Virus record (IMG/VR): IMGVR_UViG_2671180568_000004
DNA: 54,958 nt
Reading direction: 5' to 3' (one strand)
Origin: a virus
Lineage: Duplodnaviria; Heunggongvirae; Uroviricota; Caudoviricetes
Of the stretch, positions 29,272 to 50,427 are shown piece after piece; the stretch's first letter is position 1, and the number at the start of each line of letters is the position of its first letter. The notes beneath the pieces are model-generated. The model was not told the DNA's origin. It ran no database searches and worked only from the letters and a program-made list of their open reading frames with translations. A program made the translations under genes and the position numbers.

Positions 29272-32200
29272 TTATGATGATGCCGGTGCATTTATCTCCA
29301 GCACCAGGCTGCCGATATCGACGCCATACGCTGCATTTTTGGTAATATCCGTCAGCGTCAGCGCATTCAGCCCCAGTGTCAGACTGTCTTTTATGACCTG
29401 GAATGCCGGGCCAGCCACTCCATTCAGTTTCGGAGTAACCGTGGCACTGCCGGCGGTGAACACCAGCTCCAGCGTCTGCCAGTCGTTACTGTAATTCCCG
29501 AACTCGCCCAACTTTGTGTTTCCGGCTTTCTTGTGATGCATCAGATTCAGTTTGCCGTCTGTGGTCTGGGTGAAGAACGACATCAGGAACGGGTTACCAG
29601 TCCCGGTCATCGCCACGACGTCAGGTAACGCTACATCGGTATACAGATAAATTCCCAGACCGAACTGGTTGTTGGTCAGTGCGCCTGACAGTCGAAACTT
29701 ACAGCTCAGTCTGCCACCCCGTGTCAGCAGGGAGACTGCGTCATCCACCGGATGCATCAGGGACCAGGTTTTATTGCTCTGCTTGGTAACCTTAAACACA
29801 CCATCTTCCAGCGCAACACTGCCGCCGGTGATGGTCCAGCCCTGCGCAGCAGCCTCTCCGGCTGTCGGCAGCAGGGAGACTGTACGAACGGATGTGTCAC
29901 CATCAGACGGCCCCGATGGNNNNNNNNNNCGTCAGCGCATTCAGCCCCAGTGTCAGACTGTCTTTTATGACCTGGAATGCCGGGCCAGCCACTCCATTCA
30001 GTTTCGGAGTAACCGTGGCACTGCCGGCGGTGAACACCAGCTCCAGCGTCTGCCAGTCGTTACTGTAATTCCCGAACTCGCCCAACTTTGTGTTTCCGGC
30101 TTTCTTGTGATGCATCAGATTCAGTTTGCCGTCTGTGGTCTGGGTGAAGAACGACATCAGGAACGGGTTACCAGTCCCGGTCATCGCCACGACGTCAGGT
30201 AACGCTACATCGGTATACAGATAAATTCCCAGACCGAACTGGTTGTTGGTCAGTGCGCCTGACAGTCGAAACTTACAGCTCAGTCTGCCACCCCGTGTCA
30301 GCAGGGAGACTGCGTCATCCACCGGATGCATCAGGGACCAGGTTTTATTGCTCTGCTTGGTAACCTTAAACACACCATCTTCCAGCGCAACACTGCCGCC
30401 GGTGATGGTCCAGCCCTGCGCAGCAGCCTCTCCGGCTGTCGGCAGCAGGGAGACTGTACGAACGGATGTGTCACCATCAGACGGCCCCGATGGCGTGTCG
30501 CCGCCGGGTGAGGGTTTAATCTCCGGTGCGGTACCGCTGATGAAGGCGCTGGTTCGACCAACTGCGTTCAGAATAGCGGTTGCCAGGCGATCCGAAATAA
30601 TGCCCCTGCGCGCCCATGAACTGAAATGTGTCGGACGATTTGACGATACCCAATTACCATTACTACGGGATAGCGCGCCGTAATAACCTGCATCAGCAAT
30701 ATCCGGGTCTTCTGCCGGTAAGTTGGTGGGCGTGTTGTTGCCGTTACCGTCGGTCATGAACGGCACAAAGAAAACGTTGTCGCTCTCCCTGTTTTTGTAC
30801 GCGCCGTAGACGGAGTCATACTGTGTGCCGTATGTGTTTTTCCAGTAATACGTCGTGTCGCCACAAATCCACGGTACAACTGCAGCACTGCCGCCATGGC
30901 ACTGCGCGTTAAATCCGGAAAGGTCAGTACGGAACTGCTTCAGCATGGCCGTGAACAGGTCCGGTTGCTGTGCGTAGGTGGCAGCGCTCATGTCAAATTC
31001 GCCCTGCATCCAGCACACCGCCAGCAACACATTTTTCGGGTTCTTCTGTAATGCNNNNNNNNNNGAGGGTTTAATCTCCGGTGCGGTACCGCTGATGAAG
31101 GCGCTGGTTCGACCAACTGCGTTCAGAATAGCGGTTGCCAGGCGATCCGAAATAATGCCCCTGCGCGCCCATGAACTGAAATGTGTCGGACGATTTGACG
31201 ATACCCAATTACCATTACTACGGGATAGCGCGCCGTAATAACCTGCATCAGCAATATCCGGGTCTTCTGCCGGTAAGTTGGTGGGCGTGTTGTTGCCGTT
31301 ACCGTCGGTCATGAACGGCACAAAGAAAACGTTGTCGCTCTCCCTGTTTTTGTACGCGCCGTAGACGGAGTCATACTGTGTGCCGTATGTGTTTTTCCAG
31401 TAATACGTCGTGTCGCCACAAATCCACGGTACAACTGCAGCACTGCCGCCATGGCACTGCGCGTTAAATCCGGAAAGGTCAGTACGGAACTGCTTCAGCA
31501 TGGCCGTGAACAGGTCCGGTTGCTGTGCGTAGGTGGCAGCGCTCATGTCAAATTCGCCCTGCATCCAGCACACCGCCAGCAACACATTTTTCGGGTTCTT
31601 CTGTAATGCCGCTTTGGTGCGTGCGATCAGGTCCTGATATAACGGTTTACCCACACCCCAGCGTGCCGAATCCTGGCTGGCCCCCGTGTCCGCACTGAAT
31701 GTCCCCTCCGCGCCCTGGGTGAATGCCGAACCACCACGACAGCATGGTACCAGCAGGATCCCCGCGTTATTCGGGATATACGGAAGCAGTTTTTTGGCAA
31801 TATGTAAGCCCTGGCCGACACAGCCGTACTGCCCTTTGCTCAGGTCTGCCTTCGGATGATTCAGTGCGCTCATATCCTGAACATCATGCAGGCAGTGGTC
31901 TGCCGGAATGATGTCGTTAAATGCGCATGCTTTACCACCGGGAGTCACTGTGTTGCGACGGGCCAGTTGCTTAATGCGTGGGTGGGGCGCATCGTAAGAA
32001 TCCGGAAGCGGAAGCCCTTCACCGTAAGCCATGGCATTGGATTGCCCGGCCAGTACGATGACGTAGTACCACTCCGGCTCAGTTGCACCACTGACGACCA
32101 CATCACCTTCTGCTGCAATCGCCTGCATCAGGGTATAAGGGGTTATGGCCACCGGACTACCAAACGGCTGCCAGCCCTCTTTCATTTTATGTGTCAGCTT

Positions 32201-32853: not shown

Positions 32854-32888
32854 GCAGTTTACTCACATCTGACAAAATCAATATAAAC

Positions 32889-33069
32889 AGCCCCTCCGGA
32901 GAGGGGCTGGAGAGTGGCGCTATGTGCCATTGCATGGTGCCGGGTGCCTCCCGGTGAATTCAGTACCAGCACCTGAATCCGCGATTATCCCATATACCTA
33001 CTCGCTGATTACCCCTCCGCACAGGGGGATTCACCATGCGAAATTTTTTAACAAACTTCCCGCCGGCCA
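32889..33069. repeat. copy A of a ~180-bp element (hairpin AGCCCCTCCGGAGAGGGGCT plus conserved blocks)
   Basis: shares hairpin, GCATGGTGCC.GG.GCCTCCCGGT.AATTCAG, GGGGGATTCACCATGCGA and TTTTAACAAA...GCCAGACAAT.ATC with copy B. Confidence 0.7.
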
Positions 33070-33341: not shown

Positions 33342-33539
33342 TGCACAGAAAAGCCCCTCCGGAGAGGGGCTGAAGTATAGCCTAATTTCTGTCTGTCGCA
33401 TGGTGCCAGGGGCCTCCCGGTAAATTCAGCCTGTCTACTGAATTTGCATGTTCTCTGGATCATACACTTTGCCAGATGCCCCGCCGCTGAGGGGGATTCA
33501 CCATGCGATGTAATTTTTAACAAATTCTCCGGCAGCCAG
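33342..33539. repeat. copy B of the same element, same orientation
   Basis: see copy A. Confidence 0.7.
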
Positions 33540-33799: not shown

Positions 33800-33876
33800 T
33801 GGACCGCCATCGGGGACTTGAACCCCGCGCAGCCAGCTTCGAAGGCTGGCGCTCTATCCCGATGAGCTAATGGCGG
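33800..33876 (-). tRNA. tRNA-Arg (anticodon UCG)
   Basis: cloverleaf by eye: acceptor CCGCCAT/ATGGCGG, D-arm TAGCTCATCGGGATAGAGC, anticodon loop CTTCGAA, T-arm GGGGTTCAAGTCCCC, CCA. Confidence 0.75.
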
Positions 33877-33883
33877 TATGTGA

Positions 33884-33959
33884 TGGTGGCCCTTGCTGGA
33901 TTTGAACCAGCGACCTGGCGATTATGAGTCGCTCGCTCTCACCACTGAGCTAAAGGGCC
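33884..33959 (-). tRNA. tRNA-Ile2/Met-type (anticodon CAU), ileX/ileZ-like
   Basis: GGCCCTTTAGCTCAGTGGTGAGAGCGAGCGACTCATAATCGCCAGGTCGCTGGTTCAAATCCAGCAAGGGCCACCA; near-identical in architecture to E. coli ileX as recalled. Confidence 0.85.
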
Positions 33960-38326: not shown

Positions 38327-38482
38327 TTACTCCTCAGGTTCGTAAGCTGTGAAGACAGCGACCTCCGTCTGGCCGGTTCGGATTCGTACCTCGCAGAGGT
38401 CTTTCCTCGTTACCAGTGCCGTCACTATGACGGTTAAACAGATGACGATCAGGGCGATTAGCATCGCCTTTTGCTGCTTCAT
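38327..38482 (-). CDS. hok: Hok/Gef-family type I toxin (51 aa)
   Basis: MKQQKAMLIALIVICLTVIVTALVTRKDLCEVRIRTGQTEVAVFTAYEPEE; in-frame upstream extension to 38539 may be a mok-like frame. Confidence 0.85.
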   Translation of the reverse strand: MKQQKAMLIALIVICLTVIVTALVTRKDLCEVRIRTGQTEVAVFTAYEPEE

Positions 38483-38773
38483 AGCCTGCTTCTCCTTGCC
38501 TTTCGGCACGTAAGAGGCTAACCTACGTGTGTAGAGCATAGATATGGCCTCAGATTAATGTTAAGCGTCTTGCCGGACGCGTAATGTTAACTGGGGCTTT
38601 TCTCTATCTGCCTTTTGGTGTTCATGCCTGAGACAGATAGCCTCAAGCACCCGCTGCAATTCTACTTAACTCTCCTTTTCCCGCAAACCGTTTTTATCCC
38701 CAGCGGCAAATCGAATACACCACCAGCGCCACCGCCATCGCAATTCCTACCGTTGTTAATGCTTCAGGCCAGC

Positions 38774-41840: not shown

Positions 41841-42102
41841 CGCACCACCTCCTCAAAATTCCCCTGATAAAACGTAAGCGTACAGCCTGAACCGTCTGGT
41901 CAGAATCTGACGAATTAGACAAAGTGGTGTCCACCAAATAAGTAGTGGGAACCAAAGTGTCAGATATGCAGAAAAATGTGACTCCCGGCAGGCGAAAAGG
42001 CTGCCCTAATTATCCTCCCGAATTTAAACAGCAGCTCGTTGCTGCCTCCTGTGAACCCGGGATATCCATCTCAAAACTTGCTCTTGAAAATGGCATTAAC
42101 GC

Positions 42103-42112
42103 NNNNNNNNNN
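42103..42112. other. N10 scaffold gap; 41874..42102 repeated verbatim at 42113..42341 (restart exactly at the IS end)
   Basis: read directly. Confidence 0.9.
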
Positions 42113-42183
42113 GTAAGCGTACAGCCTGAACCGTCTGGTCAGAATCTGACGAATTAGACAAAGTGGTGTCCACCAAATAAGTA

Positions 42184-42585
42184 GTGGGAACCAAAGTGTC
42201 AGATATGCAGAAAAATGTGACTCCCGGCAGGCGAAAAGGCTGCCCTAATTATCCTCCCGAATTTAAACAGCAGCTCGTTGCTGCCTCCTGTGAACCCGGG
42301 ATATCCATCTCAAAACTTGCTCTTGAAAATGGCATTAACGCCAATCTGTTGTTCAAATGGCGACAACAATGGCGCGAGGGAAAGCTGCTATTACCTTCTT
42401 CAGAGAGCCCCCAGCTACTTCCTGTGACTCTCGATGCAACTGCCGAACAGCCAGAATCGCTCGCAGAGGACCCGGAAACCCTCAGTATCAGCTGTGAGGT
42501 AACGTTCCGGCACGGGACGCTCCGCTTCAATGGCAATGTCAGCGAAAAGCTCCTGACTCTGCTGATACAGGAACTGAAGCGATGA
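42184..42585 (+). CDS. IS66-family accessory protein (first ORF)
   Basis: 133 aa; HTH-like N-terminus; a partial duplicate lies at 41945..42102 before the gap. Confidence 0.8.
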   Translation: MGTKVSDMQKNVTPGRRKGCPNYPPEFKQQLVAASCEPGISISKLALENGINANLLFKWRQQWREGKLLLPSSESPQLLPVTLDATAEQPESLAEDPETLSISCEVTFRHGTLRFNGNVSEKLLTLLIQELKR

Positions 42586-42929
42586 TCCCGTTACCTTCCG
42601 GGACCAAAATTTGGCTGGTTGCCGGTATCACCGATATGAGAAATGGCTTCAACGGCCTGGCTGCGAAAGTACAGACGGCGCTGAAAGACGATCCCATGTC
42701 CGGCCATGTTTTCATTTTCCGGGGCCGCAGCGGCAGTCAGGTTAAACTGCTGTGGTCCACCGGTGACGGGCTGTGCCTCCTGACCAAACGGCTGGAGCGT
42801 GGGCGCTTCGCCTGGCCGTCAGCCCGTGATGGCAAAGTGTTCCTTACGCAGGCGCAGCTGGCGATGCTGCTGGAAGGTATCGACTGGCGACAGCCCAAGC
42901 GGCTGCTGACCTCCCTGACCATGCTGTAA
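42582..42929 (+). CDS. IS66-family TnpB-like protein (second ORF)
   Basis: 115 aa; overlaps the first ORF by 4 nt. Confidence 0.8.
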   Translation: MIPLPSGTKIWLVAGITDMRNGFNGLAAKVQTALKDDPMSGHVFIFRGRSGSQVKLLWSTGDGLCLLTKRLERGRFAWPSARDGKVFLTQAQLAMLLEGIDWRQPKRLLTSLTML

Positions 42930-42978
42930 ATCTCTTTATCCTGGTTGTCACAGAATAAGCCCGGTAAAATACGGGCTT

Positions 42979-43841
42979 ATGAACGACATCTCTTCTGACG
43001 ACATCTTCCTGCTGAAACAGCGCCTGGCCGAACAGGAAGCGCTGATCCACGCCCTGCAGGAAAAGCTGAGCAACCGGGAGCGCGAAATAGACCATCTGCA
43101 GGCGCAGCTGGATAAACTCCGCCGGATGAACTTCGGCAGTCGTTCCGAAAAAGTCTCCCGCCGTATCGCACAAATGGAAGCCGATCTGAACCGGCTTCAG
43201 AAAGAGAGCGATACGCTGACTGGTAGGGTGTATGACCCGGCAGTACAGCGTCCGTTGCGTCAGACCCGCACCCGTAAGCCGTTCCCTGAATCACTACCCC
43301 GTGACGAAAAGCGACTGTTGCCTGCGGCGCCGTGCTGCCCGAACTGCGGCGGTTCACTGAGCTATCTGGGCGAGGATACCGCCGAACAGCTGGAGTTGAT
43401 GCGTAGCGCCTTCCGGGTTATCCGGACGGTACGGGAAAAACATGCCTGTACTCAGTGCGATGCCATCGTGCAGGCACCTGCACCTTCGCGGCCCATCGAG
43501 CGGGGTATCGCCGGACCGGGGCTGCTGGCCCGCGTGCTGACCTCGAAGTATGCAGAGCACACCCCGCTGTATCGCCAGTCAGAAATATACGGCCGGCAAG
43601 GTGTGGAGCTGAGCCGTTCACTGCTGTCGGGCTGGGTGGATGCATGCTGCCGGCTGCTGTCTCCGCTGGAAGAGGCGCTTCATGGCTATGTCATGACTGA
43701 CGGCAAACTCCATGCCGATGATACCCCGGTCCAGGTACTGCTGCCGGGTAATAAGAAGACGAAGACCGGGCGGTTGTGGGCGTATGTTCGTGATGACCGC
43801 AATGCCGGGTCAGCGTTGGCACCTGCAGTGTGGTTCGCTTA
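42979..43841 (+). CDS. IS66-family transposase, 5' part (continues at 45633 in this scaffold)
   Basis: zinc-finger CCPNCGG...CTQCD and coiled-coil N-terminus; sequence 43738..43841 reappears at 45633..45736. Confidence 0.75.
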
Positions 43842-43879
43842 GGGGTCTGACGCTCAGTGGAACGAAAACTCACGTTAAG
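43842..43879. repeat. Tn3-family 38-bp terminal inverted repeat
   Basis: GGGGTCTGACGCTCAGTGGAACGAAAACTCACGTTAAG read directly. Confidence 0.85.
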
Positions 43880-45177
43880 CAACGTTTTCTGCCTCTGACG
43901 CCTCTTTTAATGGTCTCAGATGTCCTTTGGTCACCAGTTCTGCCAGCGTGAAGGAATAATGGCCGAGCATATTGATATGTCCGTGGCAAAGCGGGGAGAG
44001 GCGTGCGATATCTTCATCATTCAGTGTTTCACCCTGCGCCCGGAGATGATCCAGGGCTGCCTGCATATAAATAGTGTTCCATAACACGACGGCGTTAGTG
44101 ACCAGCCCCAGTGTGCCCAGTTGATCTTCCTGACCGTCGGTATATCGTTTTCTTATCTCACCTTTTTGACCGTGACAGATGGCTCTGGCAACGGCATGGC
44201 GACTTTCTCCCCGATTAAGCTGGGTCAGAATGCGCCGGCGGTAATCTTCATCATCAATATAATTAAGCAGATACAGCGTTTTGTTGATGCGCCCCACTTC
44301 AATGATTGCCTGAGTCAGTCCGGAAGGACGTTCACTTTTCAGCAATGAACGGACCAGCACTGAAACCTGTACTTTGCCCAGCTTCAGGGAGCCAGCGGTC
44401 CGGATCATTTCGTCCCACTGAAGGACTATTTTTCGGGGATCTGATTGCCCTCTGGCAATATCATTCAGCACGCCATAGTCGGCATCATGGTCCATTCGCC
44501 AGAAAACCGAAGCACCGGCATCAGCCAGGCGTGGAGAAAACTGGTATCCCAGCAGCCAGAAAAGGCCAAAGACAAGTTCGCTGGCACCTGCTGTATCGGT
44601 CATAATTTCGGTTGGATTCAGCCCGGTCTCCTGTTCCAGAAGACCTTCCAGCACAAAGATAGAGTCCCTCAGCGTCCCCGGTATAACGATGCCATGAAAG
44701 CCGGAATACTGATCGGACACAAAGTTGTACCAGGTGATCCCTCTGTTATTACCAAAGTATTTGCGGTTCGGTCCGGCATTGATTGTTCTGACTGGCGTAA
44801 CAAAGCGCATTCCATCTGCAGATGCCACTTCTCCTCCACCCCATATCTGTGCCAGTGGCAGCGTTGCCTGAAAATCAACCAGTCTGGCATTAGCGCTGGT
44901 GATAGTTTCAGCCCGCAGATAGTTCGCTTTTGTCCAGTTCAGCCGGTGTCGGGTCAGTGCAGGAACATTTGATCTGATCAGTGGTTCCAGACCGATATTG
45001 CAGGCTTCAGCCATCAGCACGGCGCTGATGCTGACGGGCAGATCATCAACTCTGGCACTGGCTTCACTAGCATGGAAAAACTCATCAGCAAATCCGGTAT
45101 GGGCGTTAATTTCGAGCAGCAACTCCGTTAAATCCACCGGAGGGAGTAGATCACTGATCATTTTGCTCAGTCGTTTC
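43875..45177 (-). pseudogene. tnpA: Tn3-family transposase, C-terminal ~435 aa only (5'-truncated by IS26)
   Basis: stop lies within the IR as in Tn3; 5' end abuts the IS26 end. Confidence 0.8.
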
Positions 45178-45622
45178 GGCACTGTTGCAAATAGTCGGTG
45201 GTGATAAACTTATCATCCCCTTTTGCTGATGGAGCTGCACATGAACCCATTCAAAGGCCGGCATTTTCAGCGTGACATCATTCTGTGGGCCGTACGCTGG
45301 TACTGCAAATACGGCATCAGTTACCGTGAGCTGCAGGAGATGCTGGCTGAACGCGGAGTGAATGTCGATCACTCCACGATTTACCGCTGGGTTCAGCGTT
45401 ATGCGCCTGAAATGGAAAAACGGCTGCGCTGGTACTGGCGTAACCCTTCCGATCTTTGCCCGTGGCACATGGATGAAACCTACGTGAAGGTCAATGGCCG
45501 CTGGGCGTATCTGTACCGGGCCGTCGACAGCCGGGGCCGCACTGTCGATTTTTATCTCTCCTCCCGTCGTAACAGCAAAGCTGCATACCGGTTTCTGGGT
45601 AAAATCCTCAACAACGTGAAGA
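45178..45622 (+). mobile_element. IS26 left end and partial transposase (cut off by N10)
   Basis: IR GGCACTGTTGCAAA at 45178; MNPFKGRHFQRDIILWAVRWYCKYGISYRELQEM... matches IS26 transposase. Confidence 0.85.
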
Positions 45623-45632
45623 NNNNNNNNNN
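45623..45632. other. N10 scaffold gap; sequence after the gap restarts at the equivalent of 43738
   Basis: read directly. Confidence 0.9.
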
Positions 45633-46412
45633 CTGCTGCCGGGTAATAAGAAGACGAAGACCGGGCGGTTGTGGGCGTATGTTCGTGATGACCGCAATGC
45701 CGGGTCAGCGTTGGCACCTGCAGTGTGGTTCGCTTACAGCCCGGACAGGAAAGGCATCCATCCGCAGACTCATCTTGCTTGCTTCAGCGGTGTGCTGCAA
45801 GCGGATGCGTACGCCGGGTTCAACGAGCTGTATCGCAATGGTCGGATAACGGAAGCTGCCTGCTGGGCTCATGCCCGCCGAAAGATCCACGATGTGCACG
45901 TCCGCATCCCGTCAGCACTGACGGAAGAAGCCCTGGAGCAGATCGGTCAGTTGTACGCCATAGAGGCGGATATAAGGGGAATGCCGGCAGAGCAGCGGCT
46001 TGCTGAACGTCAGCGAAAAACGAAACCGCTGTTGAAATCCCTGGAAAGCTGGTTGCGTAAAAAGATGAAGACCCTGTCGCGACACTCAGAGTTGGCGAAG
46101 GCGTTCGCGTACGCACTTAACCAGTGGCCGGCACTGACGTACTATGCGAACGATGGCTGGGTGGAAATCGACAACAACATCGCTGAAAATGCCCTGCGAG
46201 CGGTCAGTCTGGGTCGTAAAAACTTCCTGTTCTTCGGCTCTGACCATGGTGGTGAGCGGGGAGCGCTACTGTACAGCCTGATCGGGACGTGCAAACTGAA
46301 TGACGTGGATCCAGAAAGCTACCTTCGCCATGTGCTTGGCGTCATAGCAGACTGGCCGGTCAACCGGGTCAGCGAACTGCTTCCGTGGCGCATAGCACTG
46401 CCAGCTGAATAA
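45633..46412 (+). CDS. IS66-family transposase, 3' part (DDE region)
   Basis: continuation of the 42979 frame once the overlap is collapsed. Confidence 0.75.
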
Positions 46413-46449
46413 CACATCCCCGTCAATACGGCCCTCGCTGTACGCTTAC

Positions 46450-46843
46450 GATAAAACGCCAGTACACGCTGCATAGCTTCACTCTTCCGGCACTCGCGAC
46501 AGATTATGTTTAGGCGCCTGTCGTAGCGACGTATTTCTCCGTCAGGTAATGACCAGATAAGGTCCGGATCAACCGCAGATGGTTTCTTCAGCTTTGCCCT
46601 TGAGAGCTTTTTACGGGCATTTTGCCAGTCCTTACGCGCCTGTTCAGACGGGAATAACCCGTAACCAGAGTTGTATACATCGCCACTGGCAACCAGCTCT
46701 CTGGCCAGAACGCTCATCAGATATCTTGTTGCCCCAGTTTTAGTTTCCAGTTGTCGTAACGTCTCGCGCCCACTCTGGCGTACGAGTTCAACAACCTGCC
46801 CTTTAATTTTTTCCCGCTCTTCTTGTGTAAAAACTTTTGCCAC
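46450..46843 (-). pseudogene. phage gene with its last 9 codons replaced by IS66 insertion (native 131 of ~140 aa retained)
   Basis: frame runs into the IS at 46449; removing IS plus one TSD restores ...VLAFYQGNFEEVVR then stop. Confidence 0.6.
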
Positions 46844-46883: not shown

Positions 46884-47861
46884 TTACCCCCTGAAGCCCG
46901 GCGGAATTTCAGTGTCCGGTTCAGAAATGTGATTCACGCAACGCTGCGCAGGCGAACGCCCCAGGCGGATAACCAGTTCATCCCATTTTTCCCGGAGTTT
47001 TGCCGGACTCATGATGTTTTTTACCCAGAACGAATCCCGCTGGAGACGCCCAAACATTTCACAAATTTGTCTGTGAGTTCTGCCATCCAGCATCCGCATT
47101 GTGCGAACGTCATTGGCCCATGCTGTCCAGTTGGGTTCTTTCGGTCTAGTGATCTCGCCATCATAGCTGGCCGCCTGCTCGTAAAGACTCACGATTCGTC
47201 CCCAGATCCACTGTGCGCACACCAAATCTTCCTGACTTCCCCACTGGCGTTTTTTCGCACTGAACACAACCGCGTCAGGGTGTCGGGTTAAAAAATCCTG
47301 TTCAGCCGTCTGCGGGTCCGGTTGCGAAGCGTCCGGACAAGAAGATCTTTTATCTGACGGATCAGGTTTTAATACTGACGGATCGGGGTCAATCATCGGC
47401 CCCCTAATCGGCAGTTTTTTATCAACAGTTGATCCATCAAAATTTGACGGGTCAACCGTTGAGGGGTCAATATTTGACGGGTCAACTGTTAACGGGTCAT
47501 TTTTTGCCGGGCTAATTTTTCTTTTCGGTTTATATGACTCACGCGCCGCCGCCGCAGCTGCTTCGAGTTTTTCCACATTAAGCCGATAGATATTGCTTAC
47601 ATTACGCCCACCGACCTTACGCTCTTCCTTCGTCAGCCAGCCCTCTTTCGCCAGTTCTGCAATAGCCGATTTCACTGTGGATTCACTTCTTGCACCGATC
47701 TGACGCCGGATAGTTTCAATGGCAGGCCATGACACGCCCTCGTCATTGCTGTAGTCTGCAAGACGGGCCATAACCGCCACCCTGGATAAGATCATGCCGG
47801 TGAAGGCGCACCCTTCCCAGACAAGACCATGAAGCTTGCTGCTCATAAAACCCCCGAACAC
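46884..47861 (-). CDS. replication initiator (O-like) containing the origin iterons
   Basis: 325 aa; HTH-like N-terminus; internal peptide repeats TVDPSNIDPSTVDPSNFDGSTVD encoded by DNA iterons; track start may be a non-ATG codon. Confidence 0.65.
   Translation of the reverse strand: MFGGFMSSKLHGLVWEGCAFTGMILSRVAVMARLADYSNDEGVSWPAIETIRRQIGARSESTVKSAIAELAKEGWLTKEERKVGGRNVSNIYRLNVEKLEAAAAAARESYKPKRKISPAKNDPLTVDPSNIDPSTVDPSNFDGSTVDKKLPIRGPMIDPDPSVLKPDPSDKRSSCPDASQPDPQTAEQDFLTRHPDAVVFSAKKRQWGSQEDLVCAQWIWGRIVSLYEQAASYDGEITRPKEPNWTAWANDVRTMRMLDGRTHRQICEMFGRLQRDSFWVKNIMSPAKLREKWDELVIRLGRSPAQRCVNHISEPDTEIPPGFRG
47429..47501. promoter_or_regulatory. origin-like iterons (4-5 copies of TTGACGGGTCAAC-like 13-mer at 15-bp spacing)
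   Basis: ttgatccatcaa 47429; ttgacgggtcaac 47444; ttgaggggtcaat 47459; ttgacgggtcaac 47474; ttaacgggtcatt 47489. Confidence 0.65.
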
Positions 47862-50369: not shown

Positions 50370-50427
50370 TTTCTGGTGACGTTTGGCGGTATCAGTTTTA
50401 CTCCGTGACTGCTCTGCCGCCCTTTTT
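50370..50427 (+). ncRNA. dicF: DicF small RNA (ftsZ-targeting), with intrinsic terminator
   Basis: TTTCTGGTGACGTTTGGCGGTATCAGTTTTACTCCGTGACTGCTCUGCCGCCC plus T-run matches E. coli DicF as recalled; about 170 nt upstream of dicB as in Qin. Confidence 0.85.

Follow-up and report, generated by a model that had tools for sequence, protein, structure and literature searches.

A Tn3/IS26 block inside the ISEc8 transposase of an Escherichia coli prophage is very probably a scaffolding artefact that carries plasmid DNA

In draft scaffolds, contigs from collapsed repeats and joins with untrimmed overlaps are characterized by N runs of a fixed length flanked by exact duplications, by contigs that begin at the first base of one repeat and end inside another, and by non-matching overhangs that are carried along. 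The locus analysed here displays all of these traits, and its sole particularity is an overhang made of resistance-associated mobile elements that is placed inside a prophage. The closest described structures are those of E. coli PCN033, whose genome was sequenced by 454, assembled into Newbler contigs and finished by closing the gaps with PCR sequencing (PMC4578781). The finished genome has an intact ISEc8 on the chromosome (NZ_CP006632.1) and a truncated ISEc8, followed by a Tn3 tnpA remnant and IS26, on plasmid p3PCN033 (NZ_CP006635.1), which is named PCN033p3 in the publication and described there as a separate, multi-replicon ColV resistance plasmid of 161,511 bp (PMC4578781).

The window, by which we mean the whole stretch of 54,958 bp that was analysed, was scanned for N runs and consists of five contigs with four N10 runs between them, at 29920-29929, 31055-31064, 42103-42112 and 45623-45632. 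The joins, and the two linkers that bound the contig of main concern, are as follows.

29356-29919 (left copy) and 29930-30493 (right copy): overlap of contigs 1 and 2, 564 bp
30510-31054 (left copy) and 31065-31609 (right copy): overlap of contigs 2 and 3, 545 bp
41874-42102 (left copy) and 42113-42341 (right copy): overlap of contigs 3 and 4, 229 bp
42103-42112, no strand: N10 scaffold linker between contigs 3 and 4
43738-43841 (left copy, plus strand, in ISEc8 tnpC) and 45633-45736 (right copy): overlap of contigs 4 and 5, 104 bp
45623-45632, no strand: N10 scaffold linker between contigs 4 and 5

An exact, untrimmed duplication is thus present at four joins out of four, and each join has the same make-up, namely a linker of fixed length with identical sequence on either side. 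The duplicated overlap of contigs 3 and 4 is the left end of the very ISEc8 that also bears the join of contigs 4 and 5. An exact repeat of 104 bp cannot be of chance origin, and the restart at the beginning of contig 5 is one case of a window-wide pattern, in which whole contigs have been concatenated without trimming.

Contig 4 occupies 42113-45622 (3510 bp) and begins at the first base of the IS66-family element ISEc8, with GTAAGCGTACAGC... as its opening bases. It contains the following features.

42113-43841, plus strand: first part of contig 4, ISEc8 nt 1-1729 (NCBIfam profiles and copy comparison)
42205-42585, plus strand: ISEc8 tnpA (NCBIfam IS66 TnpA, 96.9 bits, cut-off 74)
42582-42929, plus strand: ISEc8 tnpB (NCBIfam IS66_TnpB, 120 bits, cut-off 50)
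from 42979, plus strand: ISEc8 tnpC, first 287 codons (IS66 transposase profile, positions 4-185 of 387)
43842-43879, no strand: 38-bp terminal inverted repeat of a Tn3-family blaTEM transposon, tnpA end, GGGGTCTGACGCTCAGTGGAACGAAAACTCACGTTAAG
43875-45177, minus strand: 3' part of a Tn3-family tnpA, truncated on its 5' side by IS26 (NF033527, E = 4.5e-182)
45178-45622, plus strand: first 445 bp of IS26, with its 14-bp left inverted repeat GGCACTGTTGCAAA at 45178 (IS6-family profile)

The tnpC frame is open from 42979 until it meets the 38-bp Tn3 inverted repeat at 43842, where the join creates a TAG stop (43840-43842) in the place of the TAC (Tyr288) of the intact element. Beyond this point contig 4 continues with the inverted repeat, the 3' part of the Tn3 tnpA and 445 bp of IS26, and there it ends. 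The transposase of this IS26 starts at 45241 and covers positions 1-120 of the 202 of the IS6-family transposase profile; its right half is missing because contig 4 stops at 45622, and a complete IS26 of 820 bp is found in the plasmid. A previous sequence-only reading had described this succession, from the IS66 transposase frame through the Tn3 repeat, the truncated tnpA and IS26 to an N10 run, followed by a restart 104 bp before the Tn3 junction and a continuation as IS66 transposase. Every element of the succession lies where that reading had placed it, and the restart is an exact copy.

The explanation that we favour, with a probability of about 95%, is that the Tn3/IS26 block is in the prophage by a scaffolding artefact, that it belongs to the ColV plasmid and that the prophage ISEc8 is intact, as judged from comparisons of sequence. 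It is founded on what can be read off directly, i.e., on the sequence identities, on a target duplication, on a balance of lengths and on the finished genome, where the two structures are found apart from each other.

Consider first the prophage side, where the true chromosomal copy of ISEc8 is represented by the end of contig 3 and the start of contig 5.

41866-41873, no strand: left copy of the 8-bp target site duplication, GATAAAAC, recurring at the right flank
41874-42102, plus strand: ISEc8 nt 1-229, end of contig 3, true chromosomal copy, left inverted repeat GTAAGCGTACAGC...
45633-46449, plus strand: ISEc8 nt 1626-2442, start of contig 5, true chromosomal copy, right inverted repeat ...GCTGTACGCTTAC
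46450-46457, no strand: right copy of the target site duplication, GATAAAAC, recurring at the left flank

When the duplicated overlaps and the tail are removed, so that 41874-42102, 42342-43841 and 45737-46449 are joined, the result is an ISEc8 of 2442 bp with tnpA, tnpB and tnpC intact and a perfect 8-bp target duplication, GATAAAAC. Both ends of the reconstructed element begin with GTAAGCGTACAGC (13/13 bases, with partial matching beyond). Three consecutive genes, terminal inverted repeats with an 8-bp duplication and a length of about 2.4-2.5 kb place the element in the IS66 family, for which a target duplication of 8 bp is expected, and RefSeq labels it as ISEc8 family. The 3' part of tnpC in contig 5 covers positions 173-384 of the 387 of the IS66 transposase profile and has its stop at 46412; past the right end of ISEc8 at 46449 the contig is prophage DNA. 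An empty site was constructed from both flanks and a single GATAAAAC; at least 12 complete E. coli chromosomes match it with 100% identity over 600 bp, and it lies there in the DUF977 gene of related prophages. From the duplication, together with the empty sites elsewhere, follows that contigs 3 and 5 flank a single, simple insertion of ISEc8.

The reconstructed element with its flanks, used as a query of 3442 bp, has a full-length, one-piece match in the PCN033 chromosome, and with this query no other complete genome has ISEc8 at the site. The annotation of NZ_CP006632.1 has an intact ISEc8 here, at about 1393.7-1396.2 kb, in a lambdoid prophage adjoining ompW. The chromosomal copy agrees with the trimmed window in length (2442 bp), in the order tnpA-tnpB-tnpC, in the GTAAGCGTACAGC ends, in the GATAAAAC duplication and in its position in the DUF977 gene; it differs in that the interior of the window copy, 42342-43737, comes from contig 4, with five plasmid-type sites plus position 42439. 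In a database search contig 1 is 100% identical to the PCN033 chromosome over 20.3 kb; for contig 3 the identity is 11037/11038 bases (99.99%), and for contig 5 it is 100% over 9326 bp. The corresponding finished span, 1385224-1436918, has 51695 bp, so that the 54958 bp of the window are in excess by 3263 bp. This excess is fully explained by 40 N, 1442 bp of duplicated overlap and 1781 bp of Tn3/IS26 tail, where it should be kept in mind that the same assembly project later produced the finished genome, which is thereby not a fully independent data set.

These results also decide against a nested insertion, in which the prophage ISEc8 would really be interrupted by Tn3 and IS26, and the 3' part of tnpC in contig 5 would stem from another copy. 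In its favour, the last 229 bp of contig 3 recur at the beginning of contig 4, and the chromosomal allele at 42272 is among these bases. However, contig 5 passes from ISEc8 directly into a right flank that starts with GATAAAAC, the same octamer as on the left, the finished chromosome has an intact ISEc8 at this place, and the length accounting leaves no space for extra sequence. Since, furthermore, none of the 34 records with the ISEc8/Tn3 junction described below is a chromosome, we regard real interruption of the prophage element as extremely unlikely.

The plasmid side accounts for contig 4 from end to end. Over its full length the contig agrees with p3PCN033 in 3508/3510 bases, the remaining two being mismatches. 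In the plasmid, the block lies between cvaB, cvaC and cvi (colicin V) on one side and an IS26-bounded region with bleO and oqxAB on the other. Both junctions, ISEc8/Tn3 and Tn3/IS26, occur in p3PCN033 and about 14 sister plasmids at bases identical to those in contig 4. The window differs from these plasmids by having only 445 of the 820 bp of IS26 and by lacking the plasmid flanks; in the plasmids the cva operon and a flavin monooxygenase gene precede the block, and bleO and oqxAB follow it. A block of 2281 bp with both junctions is 100% identical in 14-15 finished plasmids. The ISEc8/Tn3 junction alone, searched for with a 400-bp query, was recovered from 34 of the 5426 complete E. coli genomes, in every case in a record of 106-174 kb, i.e., of plasmid size. 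In EC931 and WP2-W18-CRE-03 the prophage target site is empty and the junction is on a plasmid, which means that the plasmid block exists independently of the prophage ISEc8.

With two junctions between three elements in one contig, it may be asked whether contig 4 itself is chimeric, so that one of the junctions exists nowhere in the cell. ISEc8, Tn3 and IS26 are all multicopy repeats, and such repeats are often mis-joined by assemblers. Against this stand the 2281-bp block in independently finished plasmids, that of the strain itself among them, and the recurrence of the ISEc8/Tn3 junction in the plasmid-sized records, and a chimeric contig must be considered exceedingly improbable. The sequence-only reading had attributed the block to another IS66 copy, for instance in a plasmid resistance region, and this attribution is borne out by the match to p3PCN033 and by diagnostic single-base differences.

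These differences can be located exactly. Within the shared 1729 bp, the chromosomal and the plasmid ISEc8 differ at six sites; at five of these (42858, 42896, 43107, 43362 and 43480) contig 4 agrees with the plasmid copy, at the sixth (42272) with the chromosomal one. Its ISEc8 part accordingly has six mismatches to the chromosomal copy and two to p3PCN033, and on these alleles the contig is assigned mainly to the plasmid copy. At 42439, contig 4 has a base found in neither of the two finished ISEc8 copies. A sequencing error is the less likely cause, since the TnpA encoded by this allele (Q23/T79) is a widespread natural variant of ISEc8, and more likely a third ISEc8 copy has contributed to a collapsed consensus at this position. 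From the chromosomal base at 42272 and the natural allele at 42439 follows that the ISEc8 part of contig 4 is probably a consensus of several copies. It follows also that the foreign part of the window is wider than the tail at 43842-45622: the interior 42342-43737 is contig 4 sequence as well, with plasmid-type alleles, and is not the sequence of the prophage ISEc8.

The change of alleles along the contig may also be read as the trace of recombination. If the ColV plasmid had entered the prophage by homologous recombination in the 5' part of ISEc8, be it in all cells or in a part of them, both paths would be on the same molecule, with a distance of about 160 kb between them instead of 10 N. 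The two copies share 1729 bp, are about 99.7% identical and could act as direct repeats; moreover, contig 4 has the chromosomal allele at IS nt 160 and plasmid alleles from nt 746 on, a switch that would be expected of a crossover product. In a variant of this idea the cointegrate would be real and transient, and the switch between nt 160 and nt 746 would mark the crossover itself. However, the finished, PCR-verified genome has a separate circular plasmid of 161.5 kb together with an intact chromosomal ISEc8. Furthermore, the allele at IS nt 327 (42439) fits neither parent and is better accommodated by a collapsed multi-copy consensus, and assemblers ordinarily produce collapsed repeat contigs that start precisely where an IS starts. 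Integration of the plasmid is therefore very unlikely, and the transient variant has an equally small chance of being right. That the two paths cannot both be true on one molecule at this join, as had been proposed from the sequence, agrees with their location on separate replicons in finished PCN033.

The artefact probably arose in the following way. The window is very probably a draft scaffold of a lambdoid prophage from E. coli PCN033, or from a clonally identical isolate, in which entire contigs follow one another, separated by N10 spacers and with untrimmed overlaps. The prophage has one intact ISEc8 of 2442 bp in the DUF977 gene, with its 8-bp target duplication, and the ColV/IncF plasmid has a second ISEc8, which a Tn3-family blaTEM transposon has interrupted at nt 1729; the tnpA of this transposon was probably cut by IS26 later. 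How assembler and scaffolder made and placed contig 4 is inferred. Contig 4 would be the repeat contig for the 5' part that the two ISEc8 copies share, extended by the assembler into the plasmid path. The match of its first 1729 bp to the prophage ISEc8 would have led to its placement between contigs 3 and 5, by which its 1781-bp tail, 43842-45622, would have been brought into the prophage.

The mobile elements that make up the feature (ISEc8, IS26 and the remnant of a Tn3-family transposon) are all well known; the feature is without biological novelty, and its significance is one of quality control only. Taken at face value, the window presents a prophage with a resistance-associated Tn3 and IS26 and with a disrupted ISEc8 transposase, and both are false; 1442 bp of the window are duplicated artificially, and 1781 bp are of plasmid origin. 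Prophage catalogues and scans that are built from N-joined drafts can inherit false links of this kind between phages and resistance elements.

The Tn3-family part of the plasmid block is itself incomplete. The minus-strand open reading frame at 43875-45182 covers the Tn3-family transposase profile only at positions 546-954 of 954, from which follows that the 5' part of tnpA is missing; 1303 of 3006 nt are retained, and a complete tnpA of about 1000 aa is not found in the window. RefSeq annotates the tnpA of the matching plasmid as a Tn3-like element Tn3 family transposase, incomplete. A tnpR resolvase gene and a res site are absent from the window, IS26 having replaced everything beyond tnpA nt 1303, and the 38-mer at 43842-43879 occurs there once, with no second Tn3 inverted repeat; of the two ends at which a 5-bp target duplication would lie, the window has one. 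By its sequence, the window tnpA is a remnant and not part of a functional transposon.

The identity of the remnant and its likely history become clear from plasmid p13P460A-2 (NZ_CP021087.1). This plasmid has the ISEc8/Tn3 junction at the same base as contig 4, but differs in that its transposon is complete (4950 bp, with tnpA, tnpR, blaTEM-1 and two 38-bp repeats) and its tnpA is uncut by IS26. The 38-mer of the window and its exact reverse complement enclose this 4950-bp tnpA-tnpR-blaTEM-1 unit, which identifies 43842-43879 as the tnpA-side terminal repeat of a Tn3-family transposon. It is likely that the complete transposon of the p13P460A-2 type represents the precursor state of the PCN033 plasmid block. 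Since a complete blaTEM-1 transposon is found elsewhere at the same junction, the Tn3-family insertion into the plasmid ISEc8 probably came first, and the truncation of tnpA by IS26 later.

Contig 2, the second of the five pieces that make up the window, occupies 29930-31054 (1125 bp), between the N10 runs at 29920-29929 and 31055-31064; the prophage gene in which it falls encodes a DUF6645 domain. It shares 564 bp with contig 1 and 545 bp with contig 3, and from this follows that it contributes only 16 bases of its own (30494-30509). The two N10 runs are false gaps, and contig 2 has the look of a sequence made to bridge or close a gap. In the same region the window differs from the finished PCN033 chromosome by single bases, with T instead of C at 30509 and A instead of T at 30672 (duplicated at 31227). 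One of these differences falls exactly at an overlap edge. Both may reflect mistakes in the draft or changes made when the genome was corrected later.

In contig 4, which carries the 5' part of the IS66-family element ISEc8, the sites checked in that part (42272, 42439, 42858, 42896, 43107, 43362 and 43480) form a mosaic of alleles, where five are of plasmid type, one is of chromosomal type and one is absent from both finished copies. The base at 42439 produces the TnpA variant T79, which is common in public genomes. Together, the mosaic and the frequent occurrence of this variant suggest that the ISEc8 part of contig 4 is a collapsed consensus to which a third ISEc8 copy contributed.

The window appears to be the predicted interval of a prophage integrated in ompW, since its right end (54958) coincides with the end of the integrase gene, which adjoins ompW, and since the finished genome has an OmpW fragment past the left end (position 1). 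The interval contains the following features.

32879-33067 and 33343-33536, minus strand: STnc100 sRNA in two copies, both full-length (Rfam RF02076, 132 and 138 bits) and spaced by about 460 bp
33800-33876 and 33884-33959, minus strand: two prophage tRNA genes
38477-38652, minus strand: sok antitoxin RNA, adjoining hokD
46319-46843, minus strand: DUF977 family gene, its 3' end truncated by the ISEc8 insertion
47422-47511: five overlapping 30-nt repeats (TCAAnnnTTGAcGGG-like) with 15 bp spacing
50371-50422, plus strand: DicF antisense RNA, upstream of dicB

One of the tRNAs is tRNA-Arg (TCG), while the other, with anticodon CAT, is called Met by ARAGORN but tRNA-Ile in the RefSeq annotation of PCN033. 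The sok and DicF RNAs are usual cargo of Qin/Rac-like lambdoid prophages. The truncated DUF977 family gene is annotated as a pseudogene in PCN033 (RefSeq), and its uninterrupted form is found in many related prophages. The 30-nt repeats, which lie within a minus-strand reading frame (46884-47861) annotated as a helix-turn-helix protein, resemble iterons of an origin nested within a lambdoid replication-initiator gene.
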